Of a DNA stretch of 64,000 bases, positions 13,847 to 64,000 are shown piece after piece. The stretch's first letter is position 1. Each line of letters opens with the position of its first letter. This stretch comes from Mobula hypostoma. Its lineage: Eukaryota. A program made the position numbers and the translations under genes. The stretch is from positions 127,412,001 to 127,476,000 of the forward strand of contig NC_086097.1 of NCBI RefSeq assembly GCF_963921235.1, read 5' to 3'. The notes under the pieces were generated by a model. The model had not been told where the DNA came from. It made no database searches and saw nothing but the letters and a program-made list of their open reading frames with translations.

Positions 13847-14872
13847 CAGTCGACCTTCACTAATCCGACTACCTGTAATCCGGTTCCTTCGATAATCCGG
13901 CACTGATTTCAAATTTTCCGCGCAACTGTAATTTCAAATTTCCTGGGCCACCGTACCAATCTGCTGCATATTGTTTTGGTTGCGCTAGATCTGTTCACGT
14001 GTTGGCGCACTCTTGTAAGCACAGACAGACGATTCCTGCTTGTTTTCCTGCATGTATTAATATCATTTGCGTGGGGTGTGGCTGCCTGGCACCCGCCCAT
14101 CTCACCCGCCAGCAGCGGGGGAGCTGGTGTGCGCTGGGCCAGACTGCCTTCTCGCCCGCCTGCCGGCACTCGCACACTGCCCTCTGGCGTAGCACGGCCG
14201 GTGCTCCGTTCTCTTCTGCCTACGACCTCAGATCAGACATGGTGACCCACTGAATTTAAGCATATTACTAAGCGGAAGAAAAGAAACTAATGAGGATTCC
14301 CTCAGTAACTGTGAGTGAAGAGGGAAGAGCCCAGCGCTGAATCCCCGGCCGCCTGGCGATCACGTGAAATGTGGCGTATAGAAGACCTCCTTTCTCCAAC
14401 TTCTGCTTCCGCTCACCCAGATGTGCTGCCACCAACATCAACAGTTTTTTGAAGAAACTGTTGCGCCAGTTTCAGCAGTTCCTGATGCTTCACTCATTTT
14501 TCAAGACAAAGATGTTGGTGATCCTGACAACCCCACACTTGCAGACATGCAACTTTGCCTGAAGGTATATTAAACATCTCACTTTAGAAGCCGAAGTGCT
14601 CAACTGTTCTGTACAAGTTAATTCCTGTACATTTACCTATACCCTTTATTTAATCTGTGCCTGTACAGTATATTACTTCATTAAAATTTCACTTGCTACT
14701 CATTTACTATTTCTGTTTCATTATTATCCAATTTGTACCGATTTACATGATATTTTAAAGGTATGATGAGGCGGTTAGCTATTGCTTGATGTGATCCTTC
14801 TATAATTCGGCATTTTCACTAATCTGGCACTCCTCAGGTCCCAATGGTGCCGGATTATTGAAAGTTGACCTG
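13847..14872 (+). mobile_element. Non-autonomous pogo/Tigger-like DNA transposon carrying an rDNA fragment
   Basis: Imperfect TIRs CAGTCGACCTTCACTAATCCG / CGGATTATTGAAAGTTGACCTG. TA target duplication at 13845-46 and 14873-74 restores the LINE sequence tcagtatatcct. Subterminal taatccgg repeats. Confidence 0.85.
14223..14387 (+). pseudogene. 28S rRNA 5'-end fragment, preceded by GC-rich ITS2-like sequence (about 14070-14222)
   Basis: CGACCTCAGATCAGAC..GACCC.CTGAATTTAAGCATATTACTAAGCGGA.GAAAAGAAACTAA..AGGATTCCCTCAGTAAC..GAGTGAAGAGGGAAGAGCCCAGCGC.GAATCCC is the conserved LSU 5' end. Many differences are CpG to TpG/CpA, so it is probably non-functional. Confidence 0.95.
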
Positions 14873-21490: not shown

Positions 21491-22708
21491 ATAAGTAATT
21501 AAATAATTAATACTGAGAGCATGAGTATGACCAATATTCTTCACTCAGCTTTTTGCCATAACCAGTCTCCAGTTCTTACTGGAAATTGCAAGCCACAATC
21601 AGTTTGAATTTAGAGGCACAGCTTTGCAAAGTGAAGTGATTAGGAGACTTCTTATCAGTATTAGCCAAACACAAGACAATGGGGTTACATCACTTAGCAC
21701 ATCAAACATGGTTACAAGTTGGAATGTTTGTGTACACAGAGGGCCAGCCCTCTCAGCATTAATTGTGGATCTTTGGGATCTCTGTCATCAGAATCTATTA
21801 AGACACGTGTTTGAGCTACATTGTCCCAGCAAAGGTATCTGGGAAACAACTTATGCAGATTATGTCATCTTGTCGAAAATAATGTAAATATTAGAAGTAC
21901 TGGGGATTGTTAGGAGTGACAAGGTGCATGACAGAAAGAAGAACTAGAATTCATTCCTCAACTTCCCGTTTATGCAACGGATAACTCATTCATCTACAAC
22001 TCATTGGTATGTTCTTTTAGTTCGTAAGAATTGTACCAGTGTTCAGAAAACCTTAATAGTTTTTGTAAATCTTTTGTAATTTGAATATCTTTTATAAACT
22101 AGAAATCTTCTGTGACTGTTAAATGTGCGTGGAGAATTATTTGTCTAAATTTGAACATGTATCATTAAAAATAAAATAACCATGTTTAAACTACTTCATT
22201 GGCCGGAAGTATCTCCTGATTGGTAAGGAGGGGGGACCCATCAGTCAGCACTGTCTATTAGCAGTTAAACTTCACTAGACAGGGATGTAAATTAATCTTT
22301 GAAGATTAGGTTGATATAGTACAACCTCCCTATAGTGAGGGTACCTATAGATATCAATATTGAATAGGGCTTAAAATCTCCTTTTGAGTTTAGGGCTTTG
22401 CAGACAGAGAACCCAATACCATCAGAAGTTCAGGGTTGACGTGAGTGAAGTTAACCACATTGGTTCAGAAGCCTGATGGTTGAAGGATAATATCTGTTCA
22501 TGAACCTGGTGGTGTGGGACCTAAGACTCCTGTACCTACCTCCTAATGATAGCAGTGAGAAGAGAGCATGGACTTAGATCAGTGGTTCCCAAAGTGGGCG
22601 ATATAGTCCCCCTAGGGGTGGTGGGAGTTTCTAAGGGGACAATAAAGATAAAGTGGATGGTGGGGGGAGATGCTTGGTAATAAGAGGGTGAAGCAGAGGG
22701 ATACAGAC

Positions 22709-24595
22709 TTATCCCCCCTTGTTCAATCCCTTCCTACCTATGTTCGTGACACTTCTCACGCTCTTAAACTTTTCGATGATTTTAAGTTCCCTGGCCCCCA
22801 CCGCTTTATTTTCACCATGGATGTCCAGTCCCTATATACTTCCATCCCCCATCAGGAAGGTCTCAAAGCTCTACGCTTCTTTTTGGATTCCAGACCTAAT
22901 CAGTTCCCCTCTACCACCACTCTGCTCCGTCTAGCGGAGTTAGTCCTTACTCTGAATAATTTCTCCTTTGGCTCTTCCCACTTCCTCCAAACTAAAGGTG
23001 TAGCTATTGGAACCCGTATGGGTCCTAGCTATGACTGCCTTTTTGTTGGCTTTGTGGAACAATCTATGTTCCGTGCCTATTCTGGTATCTGTCCCCCACT
23101 TTTCCTTCGCTACATCGACGACTGCATTGGCGCTGCTTCCTGCATTGACTTTATTAACTTTGCCTCCAACTTTCACCCTGCCCTCAAGTTTACCTGGTCC
23201 ATTTCTGACACCTCCCTCCCCTTTCTAGATCTTTCTGTCTCTGTCTCTGGAGACAGCTTATCCACTGATGTCTACTATAAGCCTACTGACTCTCACAGCT
23301 ATCTGGACTATTCCTCTTCTCACCCTGTCTCTTGCAAAAACGCCATCCCCTTCTCGCAATTCCTCCGTCTCTACCGCATCTGCTCTCAGGATGAGGCTTT
23401 TCATTCTAGGACGAGGGAGATGTCTTCCTTTTTTAAAGAAAGGGGCTTCCCTTCCTCCACTATCAATTCTGCTCTTAAACACATCTCCCCCATTTCACGT
23501 ACATCTGCTCTCACTCCATCCTCCCGCCACCCCACTAGGAATAGGGTTCCCCTGGTCCTCACCTACCACCCCACCAGCCTCCGGGTCCAACATATTATTC
23601 TCCGTAACTTCTGCCACCTCCAACGGGATCCCACCACTAAGCACATCTTTCCCTCCCCCTCTCTCTCTGCATTCCGCAGGGATCGCTCCCTACGCAACTC
23701 CCTTGTCCATTTGTTCCCCCCATCCCTCCCCACTGATCTCCCTCCTAGCACTTATCCTTGTAAGCGGAACAAGTGCTATACATGCCCTTACACTTCCTCC
23801 CTTACCACCATTCAGAGCCCCAAACAGTCCTTCCAGGTGAGGCAACACTTCACCTGTGAGTCGGCTGGGGTGATATACTGTGTCCGGTGCTCCCGATATG
23901 GCCTTTTATATATTGGCGAGACCCGATGCAGACTGGAAGACCGCTTTGCTGAACACCTACGCTCTGTCCGCCAGAGAAAGCAGGATCTCCCAGTGGCCAC
24001 ACATTTTAATTCCACATCCCATTCCCATTCTGACATGTCTATCCACGGCCTCCTCTACTGTAAAGATGAAGCCACACTCAGGTTGGAGGAACAACACCTT
24101 ATATTCCGTCTGGGTAGCCTCCAACCTGATGGCATGAACATCGACTTCTCTAACTTCCGCTAAGGCCCCACCTCCCCCTCGTACCCCATCTGTTACTCAT
24201 TTTTATGCACACATTCTTTCTCTCACTCTCCTTTTTCTCCCTCTGTCCCTCTGAATATACCTCTTGCCCATCCTCTGGGTCCCCCCCCCCCGTCTTTCTT
24301 CCCGGACCTCCTGTCCCATGATCCTCTCGTATCCCCTTTTGCCTATCACCTGTCCAGCTCTTGGCTCTATCCCTCCCCCTCCTGTCTTCTCCTATCACTT
24401 TGGATCTCCCCCTCCCCCTTCAACTTTCAAATCCCTTACTCAATCTTCCTTCAGTTAGTTCTGACGAAGGGTCTCGGCCTGAAACGTCGACTGCACCTCT
24501 TCCTAGAGTTGCTGCCTGGCCTGCTGCGTTCACCAGCAACTTTTATGTGTGTTGCTTGAATTTCCAGCATCTGCAGAATTCCTGTTGTTTGCGTT
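22709..24595 (+). mobile_element. Penelope-like element, 5'-truncated (RT, GIY-YIG, pLTR)
   Basis: Open frame to 24163 with RT motifs (TMDVQSLYTSIP, GVAIGTRMGPS, LRYIDD) and GIY-YIG endonuclease (GVIYCVRC..LYIGET..RFAEH). Pyrimidine-rich 3' region with a hammerhead motif. Confidence 0.95.
24457..24492 (+). ncRNA. Minimal type I hammerhead ribozyme in Penelope pLTR
   Basis: AGTT-CTGACGA-AGGGTCTCGGCCT-GAAA-CG-TC-GACT: intact core, short stem II, palindromic ACGT in place of stem III. Predicted cut after 24488. Confidence 0.8.
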
Positions 24596-26908: not shown

Positions 26909-28565
26909 CAAGTTTAGCCTCCAAGTTCAGGGTGAGGTCATCCCTTTCATCGAAGATTACCCGATAAAATGCTTGGGGAAGTGGTTTAATGTGTCACTAA
27001 CAGATGGGGCCAATGTCACCAATGCTGTGAAGCAGACAGACGAACGGCTGAAGAAGATCAACAAATCCAGACTTCCCGGTAAATTCAAGACCTAGCTGTA
27101 CCATTACGGCCTTCTGTCCAGGCTTCTCTGAGTCTTCACACTTCATGAGTTCCCCATGACTGCTGTAGAGGGCATCGAGAGGAAAACCAACAATCACCAG
27201 CTTCTCTTCAGTGGGCCTTTACATTCGTTCTGGGTAACTGCAGCTTCCCCTGTCGTTTGTTGTGGAGGAATTCAAGGTGGCAAAATGCAGAGCCTTATTA
27301 AGCTTGAGAGATTCCAGTGACGTCTTGGTAAAGCAAGCAGTCGTTACAACCAGATCTGGGTGCAAGTGGGCAGCCAACACAGCTGTGGAGCAGGCAGTGT
27401 GTTCTCTGAAGCTGTGAGATATCATCAGCAACTCCTGCGTCGAGTGGCAAGGCCTCGGCTCAGTTCACTTCCAGCAGTGGGGAAACGCAAGCATAAGGAA
27501 CAGGTGAGACATGGTACAGGCAGAAGTACGGATCCGTGAGGAAGAGAAGGGGATGTCAAAGGCAGTGGAACAAGGGTCCCAGGGCGCCTGGACAAAATGG
27601 GATCTGCCTAAGTGCAAGATCTCATAGGCAGAGTTATGGAGACTGGAGCCCTTCCATATTTCCTTCCTCTTGCGATCAGTGTATGATACCCTGCCTTCAC
27701 CATTACATCTGTACTCATGGGGGATGAGAGCGGACCCGAACTGAAAGCTCTGTGGTCAAAAGTGGACACTGGCTCATATACTGTCCAGGTGTAAAACAGC
27801 TGTAACTCAAGGACGGTATGGGTGGTGCCATGATAAGGTGCTTCTGGCTGTTGCTGACACACCAGAGTGGGAGAGATGCAAGAAGAGGGCGGCTGGCACA
27901 GATTTGAGGAAGACCATCACCTTCATCAAGGAGGGAGCCAGGCTTTTCGTAACCAAACAATCTGCTGCTAACGGCCAGGTCCTGGGAGATGAGGGTCGAT
28001 GTGGGAAGGAGGCTGCAGTTCCCGGATGTGGTGTACACAACCCTACGCCCGGACATTGTACTGCGGTCAACTGAAAACAAGAAAATAATTCTGGTTGAGC
28101 TGACTGTGCCGTGGGAGGAGGGATGGGAAGAGGCCCACGAGAGAAAGGCCTTGAAGTACCAGCCCTTACTGCAGGAGTGTAACGAGAAGGGATGGCAGGC
28201 ATGGTTGTTCCCTGTGGAGATCGGCTGCAGAGGTTTCCCAGCCAAATCAGCATGGCGGTTGTTGTCAGATCTGGGCGTGGACGAAAGGAGCAAAAAACAA
28301 GCAGATCGTAGGATGGGGAAGAGGCAGAATGAGCCTCTTGCTGGATTTGGAGTAGGTGAGAGGAGGGAAGCTGGAAGCCAGGAGCAGATGGGCAGTGATT
28401 TGGCCACCACTGCCGGCCCACCAACTGGAGAGTGTCATGGTTAAGGGTCGAAAACACTCTGAGAAGGTTGGGAGCCACCCGATGACATTTGCTCCTGGCT
28501 GAAGGCTACAGTTACTTTATAAGGTATCTGGAGAATGCACCCGAACAGGTGTATGTAACAAGTAA
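26909..28565 (+). mobile_element. HERO-like RLE non-LTR retrotransposon, upstream 5'-truncated copy
   Basis: Colinear with about 30445-32115. Contains RT thumb (KCLGKWF) and RLE (LRPDIV..ILVELTVPWEE..KALKY..FPVEIGCRGF). Multiple stops. Confidence 0.9.
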
Positions 28566-31500
28566 TCTCTGTTTTGTACCAGTGGCTTCCAGGAAAGACT
28601 GGATGGCAACCGAGGAAGGTCAGTGACGCTGGAGAGACAGCTGACCTCCAGGAAAGACTGGTACGGGCTCACAAGGCTAGCAACCTTGTGGGCAGCACTC
28701 GCAAGAGGGAACCACTCAAGCTACGATTGAACACAAAGAGCAATACCCTCAGAGTCTCCTGAGAGGGAGGGGAGAGGATGAGAGACGCAACAGGATGAGA
28801 GATGGCCAGGACAGGAAACACAACTACAAGGAAGCTAAAGCAAACAACACTGACTGGAGAGGAATTCACAGTAAGGTGTCATTGCAGGAAAGTCTGCAAA
28901 AACATCAGAGGGCTCAAGATACACCAGAGCAAATCTAGATGTGGATCAATGGTGACCCAAGTGCAGCACATGGACTTGGTGTCCAGTGAGACGAAAGAGA
29001 ATTCCAGCCAGGAAGCATCCCACAGAGCTGAAGATCTCTCCGCACTCGAGTCGCCTCAGCACCGAACAACAGACCAAGTGAGTTCCTCTTTGGCTACCCC
29101 AATCCATTCATCAAGGAAAGGCAGGATCAAATGGCCTAGATCGTCAGACAACGTCACCTGGATGCAACCAAATAGGAGGGAAAGGGAGGTTCGTCGCTTG
29201 AGAGGTGAATTACAGACGCTCAACAAGAGGTTTAAAACCAGCTCACCGGCCGAAAAAGTGCCCTCTTAACCAGCATGTTGTGGGAAAAGCTGTGCAAACT
29301 CTGGAGGGCGGAATATCTACGACAGCAAAGAGGGAAGAAAGAGAAAAGGGGAGCGCAGTTTGTGAGAGATCCATTCAGTTTCACCAGGACTCTTCTCAGC
29401 CAACAAAAATCTGTTATACTATCCAGCTCAAAGCCAGAGGTAGAGGAGTTCCTGTGGGAGGCACACAGTGACCCATGGAGGGATCGGGACTAGGAACCAA
29501 TGGGCCTGTGCGAAGACCGGAAAAACCATCAAATGAGCTGAATGTGAAGGAGCCTACGTGGCAGGAAATCCAGGACATCATCCGTAAAGCTAAAGCATCA
29601 GCTGCCCCAGGCCCAAGTGGCCTACCTTATAAGGTGTATAAGAAATGCCTAAAACTTCTTCGGAGGCTGTGGAAGGTCATGAGAAAGATCTGGGCCAAAG
29701 GTACTATTCCATCAAGTTGGAAATTGGCAGAGGGATGCTTTATTCCAAAGGAAGAGGATTCTTCTACAATTACTCAGTTTAGGATAATTTCTCTCCTGGA
29801 TGTGAAATGTAAGTTTTTCATTTCTGTGCTCGCAAGAAGGCTGATTTCTTACATGACACAGAACTGCTATATCAACACATCCATCCAGAAAGGCGGTATT
29901 CCAGGCTTTTCGGGGTGTCTGGAACACACCTCAATGATTAGCCATTTGATCAGTGAGGCCAAGCAGAAAAAAGGCAACTTAACAGTTGTCTGGTTAGACC
30001 TTGCGAGCGCCTACGGGTCTATTCCACATGACCTCATCCTAGAAGGACTCGACCACTACTATATCCCAGTGGCTATTCCAGACATGATCACCAGCTACCT
30101 GGGAGGATTCCAACAGATTTACATCAGCCCATTTCACAACTAGGTTGGCAGGACCTCCAGAAGGGGATTCCAACAGGGTGCACCATCTCCCCCACCCTAT
30201 TTATTATGGGAATGAACCTCCTACTATCAGCAGCAGAAGATGTAACCCGCGGCCCGACGTTGGAGTCGGGCATTGTTCAGCCGACTCTACGAGGGTTCAT
30301 GGACGACATCACTATAACAACTCTGGCACATGTCCAAGCAAGATGGGTATTGGAATCCCTGGATAATGTAGCCACTTGGGCGAGGATGTCCTTCAAGGCC
30401 AAGAAGTCCAGGTGCATGGTGATCAGAAAGGGCAAAGTTACTAGCAAGTTTAGCCTCCAAGTTCAGGGTAAGGTCATCCCTTCCATCGAAGCTAACCCGA
30501 TAAAATGCTTGGGGAAGTGGTTAAATGTGTAATTGACAGACGGAGCCAATGTCACCAATACTGTGAAGCAGACAGACGAATGGCTGGAGAAGATTGACAA
30601 ATCAGGATTTCCTAATAAATTCAAGACCTGGCTGTACCAATACGGCCTTCTGCCCAGGCTTCTCTGGCTCTTCACACTTTATGAGTTCCCCATGACTGCC
30701 GTACAGGGCATCGAGAGGAAAACCAACAAACACTTGCGGAGATGGTTGGGAGTTCCCCCAAGCTTCTCTTCAGTGGGTCTCTATATTCGATCTGGGCAAC
30801 TGCAGCTTCCCCTGTCATCTGTTGTGGAGGAATTCAAGGTGGTAAAATGCAGAGCCTTATTAAGCTTGAGAGATTCCAATGATGACTCGGTAAAGCAAGC
30901 AGGTGTTACAACCAGATCTGGGTGCAAGCGGGCAGCCAACATAGCTGTGGAGCAGGCAGTGTGTTCTCTGAAGCTGTGAGATATTATTGGCAACCCCTGC
31001 ATTGGGCGGCAAGGCCTCGGCTCAGTTCACTTCCAGCAGTGGGGAAATGCAAGCATAAGGAACAGGCGAGACATGGTACAGGCAGAAGTACGGATCCGTG
31101 AGGAAGAGAAGTGGATGTCAAAGGCAGTGGAACAAGGGTCCCAGGGTGCCTGGACAAAATGGGATCTGCCCAAGCGCAAGATCTCATGGGCAGAGTTATG
31201 GAGACTGGAGCCCTTCAATATTTCCTTCCTCTTGCGATCAGTGTATGACACCCTTCCATTGCCATTCCATCTGTACACATGGGGGATGAGAGAGGACTCG
31301 AACTGTAAGCTCTGTGGTCAAAAGTGGACACTGGCTCATATACTGTCCAGGTGTAAAACAGCTCTCACTCAAGGATGGTATGGGTGGTGCCATGATAAGG
31401 TGCTTCTGCCTGTTGCTGATACACTAGAGCGGGAGAGATGCAAGAAGAGGACGGCTGGCACAGACTTGAGAGAGAGCCAGGCCTTTCGTAACCAAACAAC

Positions 31501-32227
31501 CAAAGCCCAATCTGCTGCTAACGGCCAGGTCCTGGGAGATGAGGGTCGATGTGGGAAGGAGGCTGCAGTTCCCGGATGTTGTGCACACAACCCTACGCCC
31601 GGAAATTGTACTGTGGTCAACTGAAGACAGGGAGTAATTCTGGTTGAGCTGACTGTGCCATGGGAGGAGGGATGGGAAGAGGCCCACGACAGAAAGGCCT
31701 TGAAGTACCAGCTCTTAATGCAGGAGTGCAAAGACAAGGGATGGCAGGCATGGTTGTTCCCTGTGGAGATCGGCTGCAGAGGTTTCCCAGCCAAAGCAGC
31801 ATGACGGTTGTTGTCAGATCTGGGCCTGGATGAAAGGAGCAAAAAACAAGCAACTTGTAGGATGGGGGAAGAGGCAGAACGAGCCTCTTGTTGGATTTGG
31901 AGTAGGCGAGAGGAGGGAAGCTGGAAGCCAGGAGCAGATGGGCAGTGATTTGGCCACCACTGCCGGCCCACCAACTGGAGAGTGTTGTGGTTAAGGGTCG
32001 AAACACTCTGTGAAGGTTGGGAACCACCTGATGACATCTGCTCCTGGCTGAAGGCTACAGTTACCTTATAAGGTATCTGGAGAATGCACCCTAACAGGTG
32101 TATGTAACAAGTAATCTCTGGTTTGTACCAGTGGCTTCCAGGAAAGACTGGATGGCAACCGAGGAAGGTCGGTGACACTGGAGAGACAGCTGACCTCCAG
32201 GAAAGACTGACAGGTGTACGTAACAAG
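28566..32227 (+). mobile_element. HERO-like RLE non-LTR retrotransposon, near full-length copy plus terminal redundancy
   Basis: Frameshifted single ORF from about 28802 to 31948: N-terminal zinc finger CHCRKVCKNIRGLKIHQSKSRC; RT (AAPGPSG, QKGGIPGFSGCLEH, WLDLASAYGSIPH, GCTISP, FMDD); CCHC CKLCGQKWTLAHILSRC; RLE domain; stop in ..KPGADGQ*. Clade assignment is from motif recall. Confidence 0.9.
31926..32049 (+). ncRNA. Candidate non-circularly permuted (pseudoknotted) hammerhead ribozyme; second copy at 28376-28500
   Basis: Core CTGATGA (32028-34) and GAAA (32000-03). Stem III AGAGTGT/ACACTCT, stem I GTGGTT/AACCAC, stem II GGCCC/GGGTC, 15-bp outer stem. The GTC triplet is retained in the 28434-36 copy. 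Confidence 0.7.
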
Positions 32228-33514
32228 CAGAAATGACATTGCTTATTTGTCAGAATTATTCGCAAAGTTTAATGAAATCAGTTTTCAATCGCTAGGAAAT
32301 GAAGTGTACCTTGTCAATGTCAAATCCATCATCTCCACATTTCTGTCCAAGTTAACCCTATTCAAGTGCAACATTGGCCATTGCAACCTTTTCCAATTTC
32401 CGAACTTCTCGCACTTGGAAGAGAAAAAAAAGAGTACTAGGTGATCATCATCAAGAATACTGAGCCCACCTGGGAGAGCTGCATCAAGACATGTCAGGGT
32501 GATTTCAGGATCTTCTCTTTATCAGAATTCCAGATTGGATAATAAATCCATTCTTCCACACTCTTCCATAATCCATTCTTCCACATTCTTCCATAAATCC
32601 ACACTTGAAATGAGGAACCAACAGGAAGGATGGAGTTAGAACTGATCTTGCTACGAAATGACTTTGAGCTGAAGCTGAGCTACAAAAAGCCATATCAAGA
32701 CTTTTGGTTGCAGAAAGAAACCCCTGATCCTGCACTGTGGAAAAAGGTCAAGATGCTCCTTATGCCTATCCAACATCGTACTTAGTGGAGTGTGGTTTCA
32801 GTGCGGTTGCCAACATCTTTCAAAGCAATGAAACAGACTGGAAATTACTGAGTGTGGGGAACTGAGACGCCATCTGAGTGACAGTCAGCCTGATGTTGGG
32901 AAACTACTATCACTGCACCAAGCCTATCCATCTCATTGAAAGGTGAAAGAGCAATGAAGTAGTGAATAGTTGGACTGCTAATGTACGCTCTAAAATTGTT
33001 TACCATAATTTAATAAAGAAACAATTTTATTTGCAGCTTTAAATAGATTTGAATATTTTTGCAATGATTTAGGAGGTGACAAAGGGCTGCACATGATAGA
33101 ATCTGATGGGAGAGGAAAGTGGAGCATGGAATCAAGCAAGGGAAGTGGGGTAGGCAGATGAGAACTTCCATCTGTTCCTCATTCCGACATTGGCAGACAC
33201 TTGCACAGGGAGTTGCACACTCATAGTAATCAGCTTTAGCCTTGGTTGCTGTGATGAGCTCAAGGTTTCTGCTGCATCTCATCCCTCCCAGTAACTCAGA
33301 CAGGCTGTCTACTTAAACAAGGCAAGAGCCACTTGACGACCTATCAGCAGCAGACACATCCTATGCTATAGGCAAACCTTTTCCGCATTTTCAGCAGGAT
33401 TTTGGTCAGAATCACTCAGCGGTTGAAAAACGTTAGCCTAATTCCAACTTCAGCACATCAACCAACTCACTCACAGGAAAGAGATTTTCAACCAGACTTC
33501 TGCTTTCAAACGTC

Positions 33515-33890
33515 GCTGCAGTGCAAGAAACTATAGGTGTAATTGTGGGTAAAATGTAGGAATTGTAGATGTAAGGCCAGGGAATTGCAGACACTATACA
33601 GAAACAATACAGGAAATTGGAATAATTTGCAGGAAGTAGAGGTATTATGTATAGAGGAACCGATGGTTGCATTTGTAAAGTAGGAAATTGCAGATTTAAT
33701 GCACGAAATTACAGATGCATTGCAGGAAACTGTAGACATAATGAAGGAAATTGCAACAGCTTTGAAGTAAGTTGAAAGGTATATTGCAGTCGAATGCAGG
33801 AAATTGTCGATGCATTGCAGAAAATTGAAGATGCAATGCAAGAAAATGGAGATGCATTGCAGGAAGCAGTAGGTATAATGTCATGCATGG
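33515..33890 (+). repeat. Degenerate 21-bp tandem repeat (consensus near GATGCATTGCAGGAAATTGCA)
   Basis: caggaaattg/gatgcattg recurs at about 21-bp spacing. Reads as heptads EIADLMHEITDALQETVDIMKEIATALK, with stops and frameshifts. Confidence 0.65.
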
Positions 33891-34507: not shown

Positions 34508-36315
34508 AGCAACACACATCAAAGTTGCTGGTGAACGCAGCAGGCCAGGCAGCATCTCTAGGAAGAGGTACAGTCGATGTTTCAGGCCGAGACCCTTCGT
34601 CAGGACTAACTGAAGGAAGAGTTAGTAAGAGATTTGAAAGTGGGAGGGGGAGGGGGAGATCCAAAATGATAGGAGAAGACAGGAGGGGGAGGGATGGAGC
34701 CAAGAGCTGGACAGGTGATAGGCAAAGGGGATATGAGAGGATCATGGGACAGGAGGCCCAGGGAGAAAGACAAGGGGGTGGGGAACCCAGAGGATGGGCA
34801 AGGGGTATATTCAGAGGGACAGAGGGAGAAAAAGGAGAGTTAGAGAAAGAATGTGTGTATAAAAATAAATAATGGATGGGGTACGAGGGGGAGGTGGGGC
34901 ATTAGCAGAAGTTAGGGAAGTCGATGTTCATGCCATCAGGTTGGAGGCTACCCAGACGGAATATAAGGTGTTGTTCCTCCAATCTGAGTGTGGCTTCATC
35001 TTTACAGTAGAGGAGGCCGTGGATAGACGTGTCAGAATGGGAATGGGATGTGGAATTAAAATGGGTGGCCACTGGAAGATCCTGCTTTCTCTGGTGGACA
35101 GAGCGTAGGTGTTCAGCAAAACGGTCTCCCAGTCTGCGTCGGGTCTCGCCAATATATAGAAGGCCACATCGGGAGCACCGGACGCAGTATATCACCCCAG
35201 CCGACTCACAGGTGAAGTGTTGCCTCACCTGGAAGGACTGTCTGGGGCCCTGAATGGTGGTAAGGGAGGAAGTGTAAGGGCTTGTATAGCACTTGTTCCG
35301 CTTACAAGGATAAGTGCTAGGAGGGAGATCAGTGGGGAGGGATGGCGGGGACGAATGGACAAGGGAGCTGCGTAGGGAGCGATCCCTGCGGAAAGCAGAG
35401 GCGGGGGGAGGAAAAGATGTGCTTAGTGGTGGGATCCCGTTGGAGGTGGCGGAAGTTATGGAGAATAATATGTTGGACCCGGAGGCTGGTGGGGTGGTAG
35501 GTGAGGACCAGGGGAACCCTATTCCTAGTGGGGTGGCGGGAGGATGGAGTGACAGCAGATGTACGTGAAATGGGGCAGATGCGTTTGAGAGCAGAGTTGA
35601 TGGTGGAGGAAGGGAAGCCCCTTTCTTTAAAAAAGGAGGACATCTCCCTCGTCCTGGAATGAAAAGCCTCATCCTGAGAGCAGATGCAGCGGAGATGGAG
35701 GAATTGCGAGAAGGGGATGGCATTTTTGCAAGAGACAGGGTGAGAAGAGGAACAGTCCAGATAGCTGTGAGAGTCAGTAGGCTTATAGTAGACATCAGTG
35801 GATAAGCTGTCTCCAGAGATAGACAGAAAGATCTAGAAAGGGGAGGGAGGTGTCGAAAATGGACCAGGTAAACTTGAGGGCAGGGTGAAAGTTGGAGGCA
35901 AAGTTAATAAAGTCAACGAGTTCTGCATGCGTGCAGGAAGCAGCGCCAAGGCAGTCGTTGATGTAGCGAAGGAAAAGTGGGGGACAGATACCAGAATAAG
36001 CTTGGAATATGGATTGTTCCACAAAGCCAACAAAAAGGCAGGCATAGCTGGGACCCGTACGGGTTCCCATGGCTACACCTTTAGTTTGAAGGAAGTGGGA
36101 GGAGCCAAAGGAGAAATTATTAAGAGTAAGGATTAATTCCGCTAGAGGGAGCAGAGTGGTGGTAGAGGGGAACTGATTAGGTCTGGAATCCAAAAAGAAG
36201 CGTAGAGCTTTGAGACCTTCCCGATGGGGGATGGAAGTATATAGGGACTGGACATCCGTGGTGAAAATAAAGCAGTGGGGGCCAGAGAACTTAAAATCAT
36301 CGAAAAGTTTAAGAG
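34508..36315 (-). mobile_element. Penelope-like element, 5'-truncated and frameshifted
   Basis: Near-identical reverse complement of 22761-24555. ORFs 35795-36193 (RT) and 34902-35795 (GIY-YIG). Hammerhead at 34572-34607. Confidence 0.95.
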
Positions 36316-60879: not shown

Positions 60880-63235
60880 CATAGAACACTATAGCACAGA
60901 AACTGACCCATCGACTCTGTGCTGAACTGTTATACTGCCTAGTTCCATCAACCTGCACCTAATCATAGCCCTCCATAACCCACCCATCCACCTTTCTCTT
61001 AAGTATTGAAACCCAACCCAGATTCTCCACTTCCACTGGCAGCTTGTTTCACACTCTCACCACTGTGAATGAAGAATTCTCCCTCGGGTTCCCCTTGAAT
61101 ATTTCACCTTTCACCCTTAGCCTATGACCACTAATTCTAGTCTCACCCAAATTCTCTCCGCACTCTTTCAATCTTATTGATCTTTCCTGTAGGTAGGTGA
61201 TCGGATCTACACATAATACTCTAAATTAAGGTTCACCAACATCTTATTCAACTTCAACATAACATCCCAACTTCTAAACTCAGTACTTTGATTTATGAAG
61301 GCCAATGTGCCAAAGCCTCTCTTTACGACATTATCTACCCGAGACACCATGTTAAAGCAATTATGAACCTGTATTCCCATATCCCTTTGTTCTACCCCAT
61401 TCCTCAGTGCCCTGTTCACTTGTAGTCCTACCCTAGTTTGTCCTCCCAAAGTGCAACAGCTTATAATTGTCTGCATTAAATTCCACCTGCCATTTTTCAG
61501 CCCATTTTGCCAGTTGGTCCATATCCTGCTGCAAACTTTGATAGTCTTCCTCACTGTCCACTATATCCCTAACCTCGTTGTCATCCACAAATTTGCTGAT
61601 CCAGTTAACCACATTATCATCTAGATCGTTGATATAGATGACAAACAACAGTGGACCCAGCACACCACCAGTCACAGGCCTCCAGTCTGAGAGGCAACCA
61701 TTTACAACCATTCTCTGACTTCTCCCATAAAGCCAATGTCGAGTACTATTTACTACTTCATCCTGAATGCAAAGCAACTGATCCTTCTTGACAGCCTCCC
61801 ACCTGGGACCTCATCAAAGCCTTGCTAATGTCTGTGTAGATAATATCCAATGCCTTTCCTTCATTAACTTTCCCAGTAATATCCTTAAAAGACTCTGTAA
61901 GATTGGTTCGACACAACACGTTGACTGCCCCTCATCAGGCTCTGTCTATCTAAATGCTTATAAATCTGGTTCTTTAGAATACCTTCCAATAATTTACCCA
62001 TTACAAATGTTTGGCTCAGCATCCTATAATTTGCTGGCTTATTCGAAGAGCCACTCTTGATCAACAGAACAGGTTTATCAATCCTCCAGTTCTCCAGCAC
62101 TTCGCTCATGGCTAAGGATATTTGAAATATCTCTGCTAGGGCCCTTGCAATTTCTGCATTAGTGTCCCACATGGCAAAAGGGAGACCTTGTCAGGCTCTG
62201 GGGATTTATCCACCCTAACGTGCTTCAAGACAGCAAGCACCTCCTCTGTAATCTATATATGGTCCAAGATCTCACTGCTGTTTTGCCTCAGTCTATCGAC
62301 TCTGCGTCTGTCTCCCCGGCAAATAGAGATGCACAAATCTATTTATGATCTCCTCAGCTGTTTCGGTTCTATGAAGAGATGACCACATTTTTCTTCACGA
62401 GGACCAATTTTTCCCTTGCTATCCTTTTCCTTATAGTATCTCCAGAAACCCTTAGATTCTCCTCCACCTTGTCTGCCAGAGCAACCTCAAACCTTCTTTT
62501 ATCCCTCCTGATTTCCCTCTTAAGTCTTCTCTTGCTTTTCTTATACTCAAATACCTCATTTATTCCTGCCTGCCCATACCCGCTATGCACCTCCTTCTTT
62601 TCCTTAACCAGGGCCTTAATATCTCTTGAAAACCAAGGTTTCCAAAACCCGTTTGGCTTTCCTTTTATTCTAACAAGAACATGCAAACTCTGTACTCTCA
62701 AAATTTCACTTTTGAAGGCATCCTACTTACCAATTATGCCTTTTCCAGAAAACAACCGGTCCCAATCTTTGGTCTTTCGCCAGTTTAGAATCTCAACCTG
62801 AGGACCAGACCACTCCTCCCTAATTACCTTAAAACTAATGGAATTATGATCACTAGACCCAAAGTGTCTCCTTACAAAGCGTCTTCTGTCACTTGTCCTG
62901 CCTTGTTCCCTAACATTGATCCAGTATCACACTTTTTGTAGTTGGGACCTACATTCTGTCCCGGCTAAGAGCTGTGTGACATTTTCTTTGACTAGTAATG
63001 CTACACCCACCACCCCCGCCCAACCCCTCCAGGCTAACATGTCTAAAACAATGGAGCCCAAAAACACTGAGCTGCCGGTCCTACCCCTCCGACAACCAAG
63101 TCTCAGTAATGGCTACAATGTCATAATTCCACGTGCTGAGCCATGCTCTAAGCACATCCGCCTTACCTACAGAACTCTTGGCATTGAAATAGACACAGCT
63201 CAGAACATTATTCCTATCCTGCTCAACTTTTGACT
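60880..63235 (-). mobile_element. CR1 LINE ORF2 remnant (APE to RT)
   Basis: YFNAKSSVGK..YDIVAITETWL (APE), KPWFSRDI, VLGPLLFVIYINDLD..KFVDD. Confidence 0.85.
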
Positions 63236-64000
63236 CAAACAACAGGAATTCTGCCGATGCTGGAAATTCAAGCAACATACATCAAAGTTGCTGGTGAACG
63301 CAGCAGGCCAAGCAGCATCTATAGGAAGAGGTGCAGTTGACGTTTCAGGCCGAGACCCTTCGTCAGGACTAACTGAAGGAAGAGTGAGTAAGGGATTTGA
63401 AAGTTGGAGGGGGAGGGGGAGATCCAAAATGATAGGAGAAGACAGGAGGGGGAGGGATAGAGCCGAGAGCTGGACAGGTGATAGGCAAAAGGGGATACGA
63501 GAGGATCATGGGACAGGAGGTCCGAGAAGAAAGACAAGGGGGGGGGGTTGACCCAGAGGATGGGCAAGAGGTATATTCAGAGGGACAGAGGGAGAAAAAG
63601 GAGAGTGAGAGAAAGAATGTGTGCATAAAAATGAGTAACAGATGGGGTACGAGGGGGAGGTGGGGCCTTAGCGGAAGTTAGAGAAGTCGATGTTCATGCC
63701 ATCAGGTTGGAGGCTACCCAGACGGAATATAAGGTGTTGTTCCTCCAACCTGAGTGTGGCTTCATCTTTACAGTAGAGGAGGCCGTGGATAGACATGTCA
63801 GAATGGGAATGGGATGTGGAATTAAAATGTGTGGCCACTGGGAGATCCTGCTTTCTCTGGCGGATAGAGCGTAGATGTTCAACAAAGCGGTCTCCCAGTC
63901 TGCGTTGGGTCTCACCAATATATAAAAGGCCACATCGGGAGCACCGGACGCAGTATGTCACCCCAGACGACTCACAGGTGAAGTGATGCCTCACCTGGAA
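63236..64000 (-). mobile_element. Penelope-like element 3' end (runs off the window)
   Basis: GIY-YIG ORF 63668-63994, nearly identical to the copy at 23.8-24.6 kb. Hammerhead at 63335-63370. Confidence 0.95.

Follow-up and report, generated by a model that had tools for sequence, protein, structure and literature searches.

Hammerhead ribozymes have been described both with their conserved blocks in unusual orders and as parts of retroelements, and the candidate that we describe here has traits of both groups. It lies at positions 31926-32049 of a 64,000-nucleotide stretch of the genome of the ray Mobula hypostoma (contig NC_086097.1, positions 127,412,001 to 127,476,000 of the forward strand), which we call the window and number from its first letter, near the 3' end of a retrotransposon of the LINE (long interspersed nuclear element) type. 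Among known RNAs, the type-SGC hammerheads are the most similar. Eckert et al. 2023 (Eckert, Friedrich, Weinberg, Weinberg; PMC10085705) describe validated hammerheads with the cleavage-site block (S), the GAAA block (G) and the CUGAUGA block (C) in the order S-G-C, as well as CSG and one GCS, the type-SGC RNAs coming from metatranscriptomes with hairpin ribozymes (viroid-like circles) and from a few other sequences. In these RNAs the linker from stem I to stem II typically has three nucleotides, a helix joins the other sides of these stems, and there are two pseudoknots; the blocks were assumed to be uninterruptible, since in known alignments insertions there do not exceed one or two nucleotides (PMC10085705).

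Three groups of mobile elements are also relevant. Penelope-like elements, according to Cervera and de la Pena 2014 (PMC4209133), carry minimal hammerheads in their terminal repeats (pLTRs), commonly with a single extra nucleotide at 9/10.1, and the same paper proposes that these hammerheads cut precursor RNA, with possible ligation to circles and more-than-unit reverse transcription. Retrozymes of plants and animals are non-autonomous, encode no protein and form tandem units with type I or III hammerheads, circular RNA intermediates having been proposed for them. R2 and other retrotransposons without long terminal repeats (non-LTR) reportedly carry ribozymes like that of hepatitis delta virus (HDV-like). 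The R2-type HDV-like ribozymes stand at the 5' end of the element and free its RNA from a longer transcript.

We consider it probable, although with real reserve, that the ray motif is a genuine hammerhead-class ribozyme. Its letters, the nested fold, the way in which it is conserved and the architecture of the copies can be shown; catalysis, and a biological role in RNA processing by the element, we infer.

Layout and fold of the motif

On inspection, the + strand at 31926-32049 holds every named hammerhead helix and every core letter, in register. This 124-nt segment is a complete hammerhead core whose parts stand outside the type I/II/III order. An earlier reading of the window, made from its letters alone (the sequence-only reading), had proposed just such a core, and each segment that it listed was found where it had placed it. 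From 5' to 3', the parts are:

31926..31940 (+): outer (closing) stem, 5' strand AGCCAGGAGCAGATG, the exact complement of 32035-49
31941..31964 (+): hairpin GGCAGTG/CACTGCC, flush with G10.1
31965..31969 (+): stem II strand 10.1-10.5, GGCCC, pairing with GGGTC 31995-99 with one G.U
31971..31976 (+): extra helix (P4), 5' strand CCAACT, pairing with GGTTGG 32015-20 with one U.G; present in the minimum free energy (MFE) fold
31979..31986 (+): stem III strand 16.7-16.1, AGAGTGT, plus H17 (T); AGAGTGT 31979-85 pairs with ACACTCT 32003-09
31987..31992 (+): stem I strand 1.1-1.6, GTGGTT, pairing with AACCAC 32022-27
31993..32002 (+): AA linker 31993-94, stem II strand 11.5-11.1 GGGTC 31995-99, and G12 A13 A14 32000-02
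32003..32009 (+): stem III strand 15.1-15.7, ACACTCT, followed by a GTGAA spacer
32015..32020 (+): extra helix (P4), 3' strand GGTTGG, followed by a single G
32022..32034 (+): stem I strand 2.6-2.1, AACCAC, and core C3-A9, CTGATGA (32028-34)
32035..32049 (+): outer stem, 3' strand CATCTGCTCCTGGCT, forming a perfect 15-bp helix with AGCCAGGAGCAGATG and starting directly after A9
32050..32113 (+): 3' tail to the true 3' end of the element, ending in ..GTAACAAG; the full copies L061, L062 and L064 stop here

The core of this copy (copy 2 of the two in the window) is complete: C3 U4 G5 A6 N7 G8 A9, G12 A13 A14, A15.1-U16.1 and H17. Stems I, II and III, with complementarity of 6, 5 and 7 bp, abut it in register with G10.1-C11.1, and the predicted cut falls after position 17, at 31986/31987. 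A single A separates GGCCC from CCAACT, and GG separates CCAACT from AGAGTGT. The extra helix CCAACT/GGTTGG, separated from 10.5 and from 2.6 by a single nucleotide each, connects stems I and II on their free sides; the linker between these stems has 2 nt. CUGANGA does not continue into the stem II strand with at most 1-2 inserted nucleotides; the outer stem follows A9, and G10.1 is situated 63 nt upstream of C3. The 5' strand of the outer stem is coding and comprises the last codons of the open reading frame (ORF), K-P-G-A-D-G, while the stop codon, TGA at 31946-48, lies within the hairpin at 31941-64.

The MFE fold of 31926-32049 consists of four nested helices (outer stem, hairpin, CCAACT/GGTTGG and AGAGTGT/ACACTCT) at -60.1 kcal/mol, with z -4.65 and 0 of 200 shuffles as good. 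The strands left unpaired are exactly the four that can form GTGGTT/AACCAC and GGCCC/GGGTC, that is, stems I and II, and adding both pseudoknot helices puts every hammerhead element in register. We infer these two helices, which are not part of the nested fold.

We re-implemented the published type-SGC RNAmotif descriptor with a single change, moving the G10.1-stem II strand upstream of the S block, and kept the minimal stem lengths as published. With the modified descriptor, the + strand of the window gave a single locus, 31965-32034, and the opposite strand gave no match; 1471 block-shuffled windows, scanned on both strands (188 Mb), gave no match either. The unmodified descriptor had 0 matches in the window; all its elements fit except the last, CUGAUGA followed directly by G and the stem II strand. 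The Rfam 15 hammerhead models gave no match over 27000-33500 at E<=10, none across the window at the gathering score, and none in L103 (a metagenome relative, described below), L061 or L062 at E<=1. No existing Rfam model covering the motif, a possibility raised by the sequence-only reading, was therefore found in these sequences, and such a miss is expected because the motif is a pseudoknotted permutation.

Set beside the type-SGC RNAs, the ray motif has the same cyclic block order, S to G to C, and the same order of parts (stem II strand, cleavage block, GAAA block, CUGAUGA block). It also shares the very short linker between stems I and II (2 nt in the ray motif, typically three in the type-SGC RNAs), a fourth helix that joins these stems on their other sides, two core pseudoknots, and the same conserved letters, with UH at the cleavage site. 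It differs in where the chain ends, which is inside block C, between A9 and G10.1, rather than between blocks; in the 15-bp stem and hairpin that bridge the A9/G10.1 gap and the 2 nt that join the S block to the fourth helix; and in its host, a vertebrate retrotransposon, the published descriptors leaving the ray motif unmatched. The novelty that had been raised as a possibility thus narrows. The cyclic order, the short linker and the extra helix are already known from type-SGC RNAs, and what appears to be new, judging from these comparisons, is the break between A9 and G10.1.

Lineages and conservation of the core

We assembled an alignment (A1) of 48 rows, comprising the 2 window copies, 27 further loci of a young lineage, 18 copies of an older lineage, and L103, from a metagenome contig (ERZ506812 NODE-45). 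The young lineage has 29 rows with the window copies included; L001 and L011 are these window copies and are not repeated, and L025 was left out. For the older lineage, 40 exact pattern matches were obtained in the source genome, of which 20 were fetched and 18 aligned, L127 and L131 being omitted for large deletions. L103 was found with a 20-mer of the core and has the same arrangement, including the head-to-tail junction of units described below, and the same nested fold (z -4.45). Its identity to the window varies along the element:

ORF end: 63%
core 31965-32034: 91%
3' tail: 52%
leader block 32130-32209: 92%

Raw DNA reads of organism F fall only on 31955-32040, each of the 27 lying partly on this segment and continuing unlike the window to either side of it, and their letters match L103. 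A search for divergent relatives in viral contigs returned 0 matches, and the L103-type outer stem is absent from the source genome.

The majority letter is identical in the three lineages at C3, U4, G5, A6, G8, A9, G12, A13, A14, A15.1 and U16.1, and the core differences among them are confined to three positions:

N7: U in 27/29 young rows, C in 16/18 older rows, U in L103
H17: C in 24/29 young rows, A in 14/18 older rows, U in L103
C11.1: C in 21/29 young rows, U in 11/18 older rows, U in L103 (G.U pair with G10.1)

N7 and H17 are the two core positions that the hammerhead consensus leaves free. By our own count there are ~10 fixed differences between the young and older lineages in 124 nt, and the chance that both N7 and H17 would be among them is ~0.005. 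The pair G10.1-C11.1 is intact in 21/29 young-lineage rows. Within the older lineage, the source-genome copies L104-L107, L121 and L132 form a sub-branch that reads GTGCA/GTGG (U16.1>C); since this change should disable a hammerhead, the sub-branch may be a dead side branch.

Of the 29 young rows, 24 have C and 5 have T at position 17, whereas at position 1.1 there are 23 with G and 6 with A. These majorities bear out the earlier guess of an ancestral GTCG and support GUC as the ancestral cleavage triplet of the young lineage. The exact 56-nt core with GUC occurs in 35 genomic copies. The other motif copy in the window is decayed:

28376..28500 (+): second, decayed motif copy (copy 1), with U4>C, an extra A in GAAA, and G1.1>A

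Copy 1 folds like copy 2 (z -4.99) and, from its letters, looks dead as a ribozyme. The sequence-only reading had regarded both copies as probably crippled, which agrees with the three changes in copy 1 and not with copy 2, where H17=U is no defect because the descriptor and the NUH rule permit U.

Across A1, 92.9% of cells pair, compared with 27-47% when partners are slid. Both-sided changes occur at 6 outer-stem pairs, 1 stem II pair and 1 extra-helix pair, and comparison of the outer stem with L103 shows 4 double compensatory pairs (A-U>U-A, C-G>G-C, A-U>G-C and U-A>G-C) and loss of the terminal pair. Other lineage changes are G.U-compatible: 10.2 G/A (G in 29/29 young rows and A in 18/18 older rows and L103, hence G.U versus A-U), 11.1 C/U, 31964 C/U, and 2.6 A>G in L103. 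The hairpin closing pair is G-C in 21/48 and G.U in 26/48 rows. In the older lineage, 2.6=C loses the end pair of stem I, which is therefore 5 bp there, and the terminal pair 15.7-16.7 of stem III is unpaired in 21/48 rows. The pseudoknot helices are thus conserved, with wobble-type changes tolerated, and covariation is no proof of them.

The host element and its insertions

Pieces of the ORF match Pfam RVT_1 and zf-RVT, and among proteins of solved structure the reverse transcriptase matches R2 and LINE-1 ORF2 to a similar degree (E 5e-10 to 7e-8). By eye, we also recognised an N-terminal zinc-finger-like motif and, at the C terminus, a CCHC motif (C..C..H..C near 31300) and a PD..E..K-like motif (RPD..ELTVP.E..K..KY in L103), both of the latter seen by eye only. 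The C terminus matches no Pfam family and has a single, insignificant solved-structure match, and pieces of this element gave no GIY-YIG match. For placement of the protein in a clade, Atlas gave only eukaryotic clusters without names, and the HERO-like affinity named in the sequence-only reading is a putative one. The RVT_1 and zf-RVT matches, the likeness to R2 and LINE-1, the CCHC and PD..E..K-like motifs, and the lack of a GIY-YIG match therefore point to a LINE of the restriction-like-endonuclease type, the C terminus being a putative nuclease of that kind. Copies of the element in the window are arranged as follows:

28565..32113 (+): full retrotransposon unit, with leader 28565-28660, broken ORF, ribozyme motif and tail
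26909..28564 (+): copy that lacks its 5' part, in head-to-tail fusion with the full unit 28565-32113
32114..32227 (+): partial leader 32114-32209, then 18 nt that repeat the 3' end of the element (32210-32227), followed by unique DNA

The segment 32114-32227 looks like a third, internally deleted unit of the same head-to-tail series. The motif lies 64 nt from the element's 3' end, and the predicted cut would leave a 127-nt 3' piece. The sequence-only reading was correct in placing the motif at the end of the ORF of a LINE-type retrotransposon; the ORF end is not the end of the element, whose true 3' end lies 64 nt further, at 32113. In the source genome (3.48 Gb), the 3' region of the element has 1619 first-look candidates and one 22-mer from the motif has 330 exact copies; the element is present in more than 1000 copies. 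At ~28/30 loci and at 30/30 junction loci, the 3' part of a copy continues without a break into the leader and body of a next unit, so that an insertion usually consists of a copy truncated at its 5' end and, fused to it head-to-tail, a full unit. As a result of this more-than-unit arrangement, the motif stands both upstream and downstream of the ORF. No target-site duplications were found around the composite insertions.

Penelope-like elements resemble the ray element in having a hammerhead in a part of the retroelement that is repeated through head-to-tail, more-than-unit insertion, and in the proposed role, the cutting of precursor RNA with the possible formation of circles. They differ in their GIY-YIG nuclease, of which the ray element has no match, its C terminus being different. 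Retrozymes share the tandem, hammerhead-bounded units, but they are protein-less and have type I or III hammerheads, whereas the ray element encodes its own reverse transcriptase. The likeness to the R2-type HDV-like ribozymes is that a putative self-cleaving RNA with two pseudoknots is carried by a LINE of the restriction-like-endonuclease group; here, however, the ribozyme class is another one and the motif is near the 3' end, reaching the 5' side only via the tandem arrangement. In the literature outside subscription journals, we found no hammerhead reported in a LINE of the HERO, NeSL or R2 type.

If the RNA is cut at the predicted site, reverse transcription should run off at G31987, and insertion start points can be read as traces of cutting. 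Among the junction loci (n=30), two upstream copies start at the cut, L042 exactly and L043 with an A that we read as G>A. For the 127-nt 3' piece, the best copies (38 retrieved, in addition to L002) include none that starts there; 36 of the 38 continue upstream, and two start at ~31964 and 31980. Pattern searches with non-element letters upstream added L109 and L110 at the cut (with microhomology of +-1-2 nt), L108 being ambiguous. Altogether four independent insertions start at G1.1 (L042, L043, L109 and L110), and three start elsewhere within +-10 nt (L092 at 31980, L114 at 31981 and L116 at 31989). The combined p for the excess at G1.1 is ~0.001, allowing for double coverage of the site by the two pattern designs, and the excess of insertion starts at the predicted cut, which is the one hint of cleavage in vivo, is small. 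Separately, in run X14 (organism E) one contig has 31791 followed immediately by 31986, beside the predicted cut, a junction that may reflect either template switching where the RNA was cut or simply a deletion.

Several further features of the locus deserve mention. The leader block 32130-32209 (corresponding to 28581-28660 of the full unit) is 92% identical to L103, with 44-52% on either side. It folds with z -2.98, is matched by no Rfam model, and could act as a promoter or represent a second functional RNA. An HDV-like reading of this block, made by eye, was dropped because no P1.1 could form. On the - strand, an open antisense frame at 31369-32268 spans the entire ribozyme motif. A public-protein search with this frame gave 4 proteins, P0003 (JGI), P0004 and P0005 (Logan) and P0006 (NCBI), suggesting that the motif is mis-annotated as coding in places. 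P0003 and P0004 retain CUGAUGA and GAAAC, P0006 is a decayed copy with a deletion, and P0005 covers just 35% of the query; all were excluded from the pair counts, amino-acid letters being too ambiguous. Penelope-like element copies, unrelated to the element studied, lie at 22652-24163 (+), 34508-36315 (-) and 63230-64000, with weak, below-cut-off RVT_1 and GIY-YIG matches. An 80-nt fragment at 14246-14325 (+) matches positions 24-103 of eukaryotic large-subunit ribosomal RNA (82 bits) outside a ribosomal DNA context, and the insertion flank at 33661-33880 holds 21-nt tandem repeats with 7 copies of a 62-nt register.

Proposed mechanism and competing explanations

We propose that the 124-nt RNA would fold as a hammerhead with its cleavage-site, GAAA and CUGAUGA blocks following one another in cyclic order, and with the chain opened in the CUGAUGA block between A9 and G10.1, where the 15-bp stem and the 7-bp hairpin would abut the core in a closure resembling a four-way junction. 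The 2-nt linker and the 6-bp extra helix would keep stems I and II side by side, and a cut after position 17 (31986/31987) would leave a 2',3'-cyclic phosphate and a 5'-OH. The upstream motif copy would trim longer-than-unit RNA whose transcription begins within the truncated copy or upstream of it, as proposed for Penelope-like elements. Since the site is read through in most retrotransposed copies, such cleavage would have to be incomplete or reversible. Ribosomes that translate as far as the stop codon in the hairpin would unwind the outer stem and, speculatively, could spare the downstream copy.

A number of observations weigh against this proposal. Efficient cleavage would be expected to produce a large pile-up of insertion 5' ends at the cut, and none was found (0/38). 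The site is read through in 36/38 and 19/30 copies, which argues that uncleaved RNA is the usual template, and contigs of run X15 (guessed to be RNA) span the site, such contigs being unable to show ends. On A1, no both-sided changes occur in stems I or III or in the hairpin over the 48 rows, stem II has one both-sided cell, and most of the overall signal comes from the outer stem. The pair counts, which bear on the covariation check that the sequence-only reading had suggested, thus support the outer stem; for stems I-III the sequences are too close to give clear covariation. In L103, the pair next to the core is G10.1.U11.1, and U16.1>C is found in 2/18 aligned older-lineage rows and in 4 further copies, L104-L107. 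The geometry is also tight by our estimate, with 9 nt, six of which belong to the extra helix, having to bridge the ends of stems II and III. Finally, the literature that we covered contains no report of a helix at A9/G10.1.

The alternative that survives best is that the motif is a structured part of the 3' untranslated region (3' UTR), to which the reverse transcriptase encoded by the retrotransposon would bind in target-primed reverse transcription, and that its hammerhead-like core is a non-cleaving relic or scaffold. We regard this as a serious possibility, although a distinctly less probable one than a ribozyme. The 3' UTRs of R2 elements are recognised by the element's own reverse transcriptase, and the ray motif lies within 64 nt of the 3' end, where reverse transcription starts; that most copies were made from RNA intact at the site, and that only the outer stem has proven covariation, would be in keeping with such a role. 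The non-coding block 32130-32209 is equally conserved (92%), and high conservation is therefore not special to ribozyme function. What recognition by the reverse transcriptase leaves unexplained is the full 11-nt invariant hammerhead core in three lineages, the placement of the differences at N7 and H17 (plus the G.U-keeping C11.1/U), and the excess of insertion starts exactly at G1.1. Moreover, the two roles are compatible, and one does not exclude the other.

It is also conceivable, but in our view unlikely, that the ribozyme serves mainly in end-joining, the unit RNA being cut at two motif copies and ligated to a circle, from which rolling reverse transcription would yield truncated plus full insertions. 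More-than-unit insertions are indeed the rule (~28/30 loci and 30/30 junction loci), L103 has the same head-to-tail pattern, and the same model is in print for Penelope-like elements (PMC4209133). Against it, no circular RNA was observed, and no target-site duplications were found that would show a single-event insertion. The same DNA pattern would also arise by read-through transcription of tandem DNA or by end-to-end template jumping of the reverse transcriptase, a property reported for R2. We would place little confidence, too, in a broader scheme in which this is an autonomous LINE of cartilaginous fish with a CUGAUGA-split hammerhead, a fourth topological family, that is used in a retrozyme-like manner for unit-length cutting, circularisation and rolling reverse transcription; a circle with rolling reverse transcription would explain the near-universal seamless fusions of truncated and full copies. 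Chance resemblance, a stable hairpin region that happens to hold CUGAUGA, GAAA and complementary words, is very improbable even though the sequence-only reading was free to search any part order and stems I (6 bp) and II (5 bp) are short and without covariation, given 0 matches in 188 Mb of shuffled sequence even at minimal stem lengths, an analytic estimate of ~1e-12 per position for the observed stem lengths, and a core kept in three lineages while the flanks diverge.

The hammerhead reading, which we favour, would have several consequences if the motif does cleave. The CUGAUGA block would prove to be divisible, and the A9/G10.1 step replaceable by a helical junction, which would offer a new place to attach sensors in ribozyme design. 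The search space for natural ribozymes would widen, since current descriptors and Rfam models miss this layout. To our knowledge, the ribozymes otherwise known from LINEs of the R2-like group are HDV-like and, in schistosomes, twister; with the ray motif, a hammerhead would for the first time be connected with such a LINE. The design that combines a terminal-repeat ribozyme with more-than-unit insertion would have arisen independently of Penelope-like elements, and the circular-RNA model for such elements would become testable in a second system.

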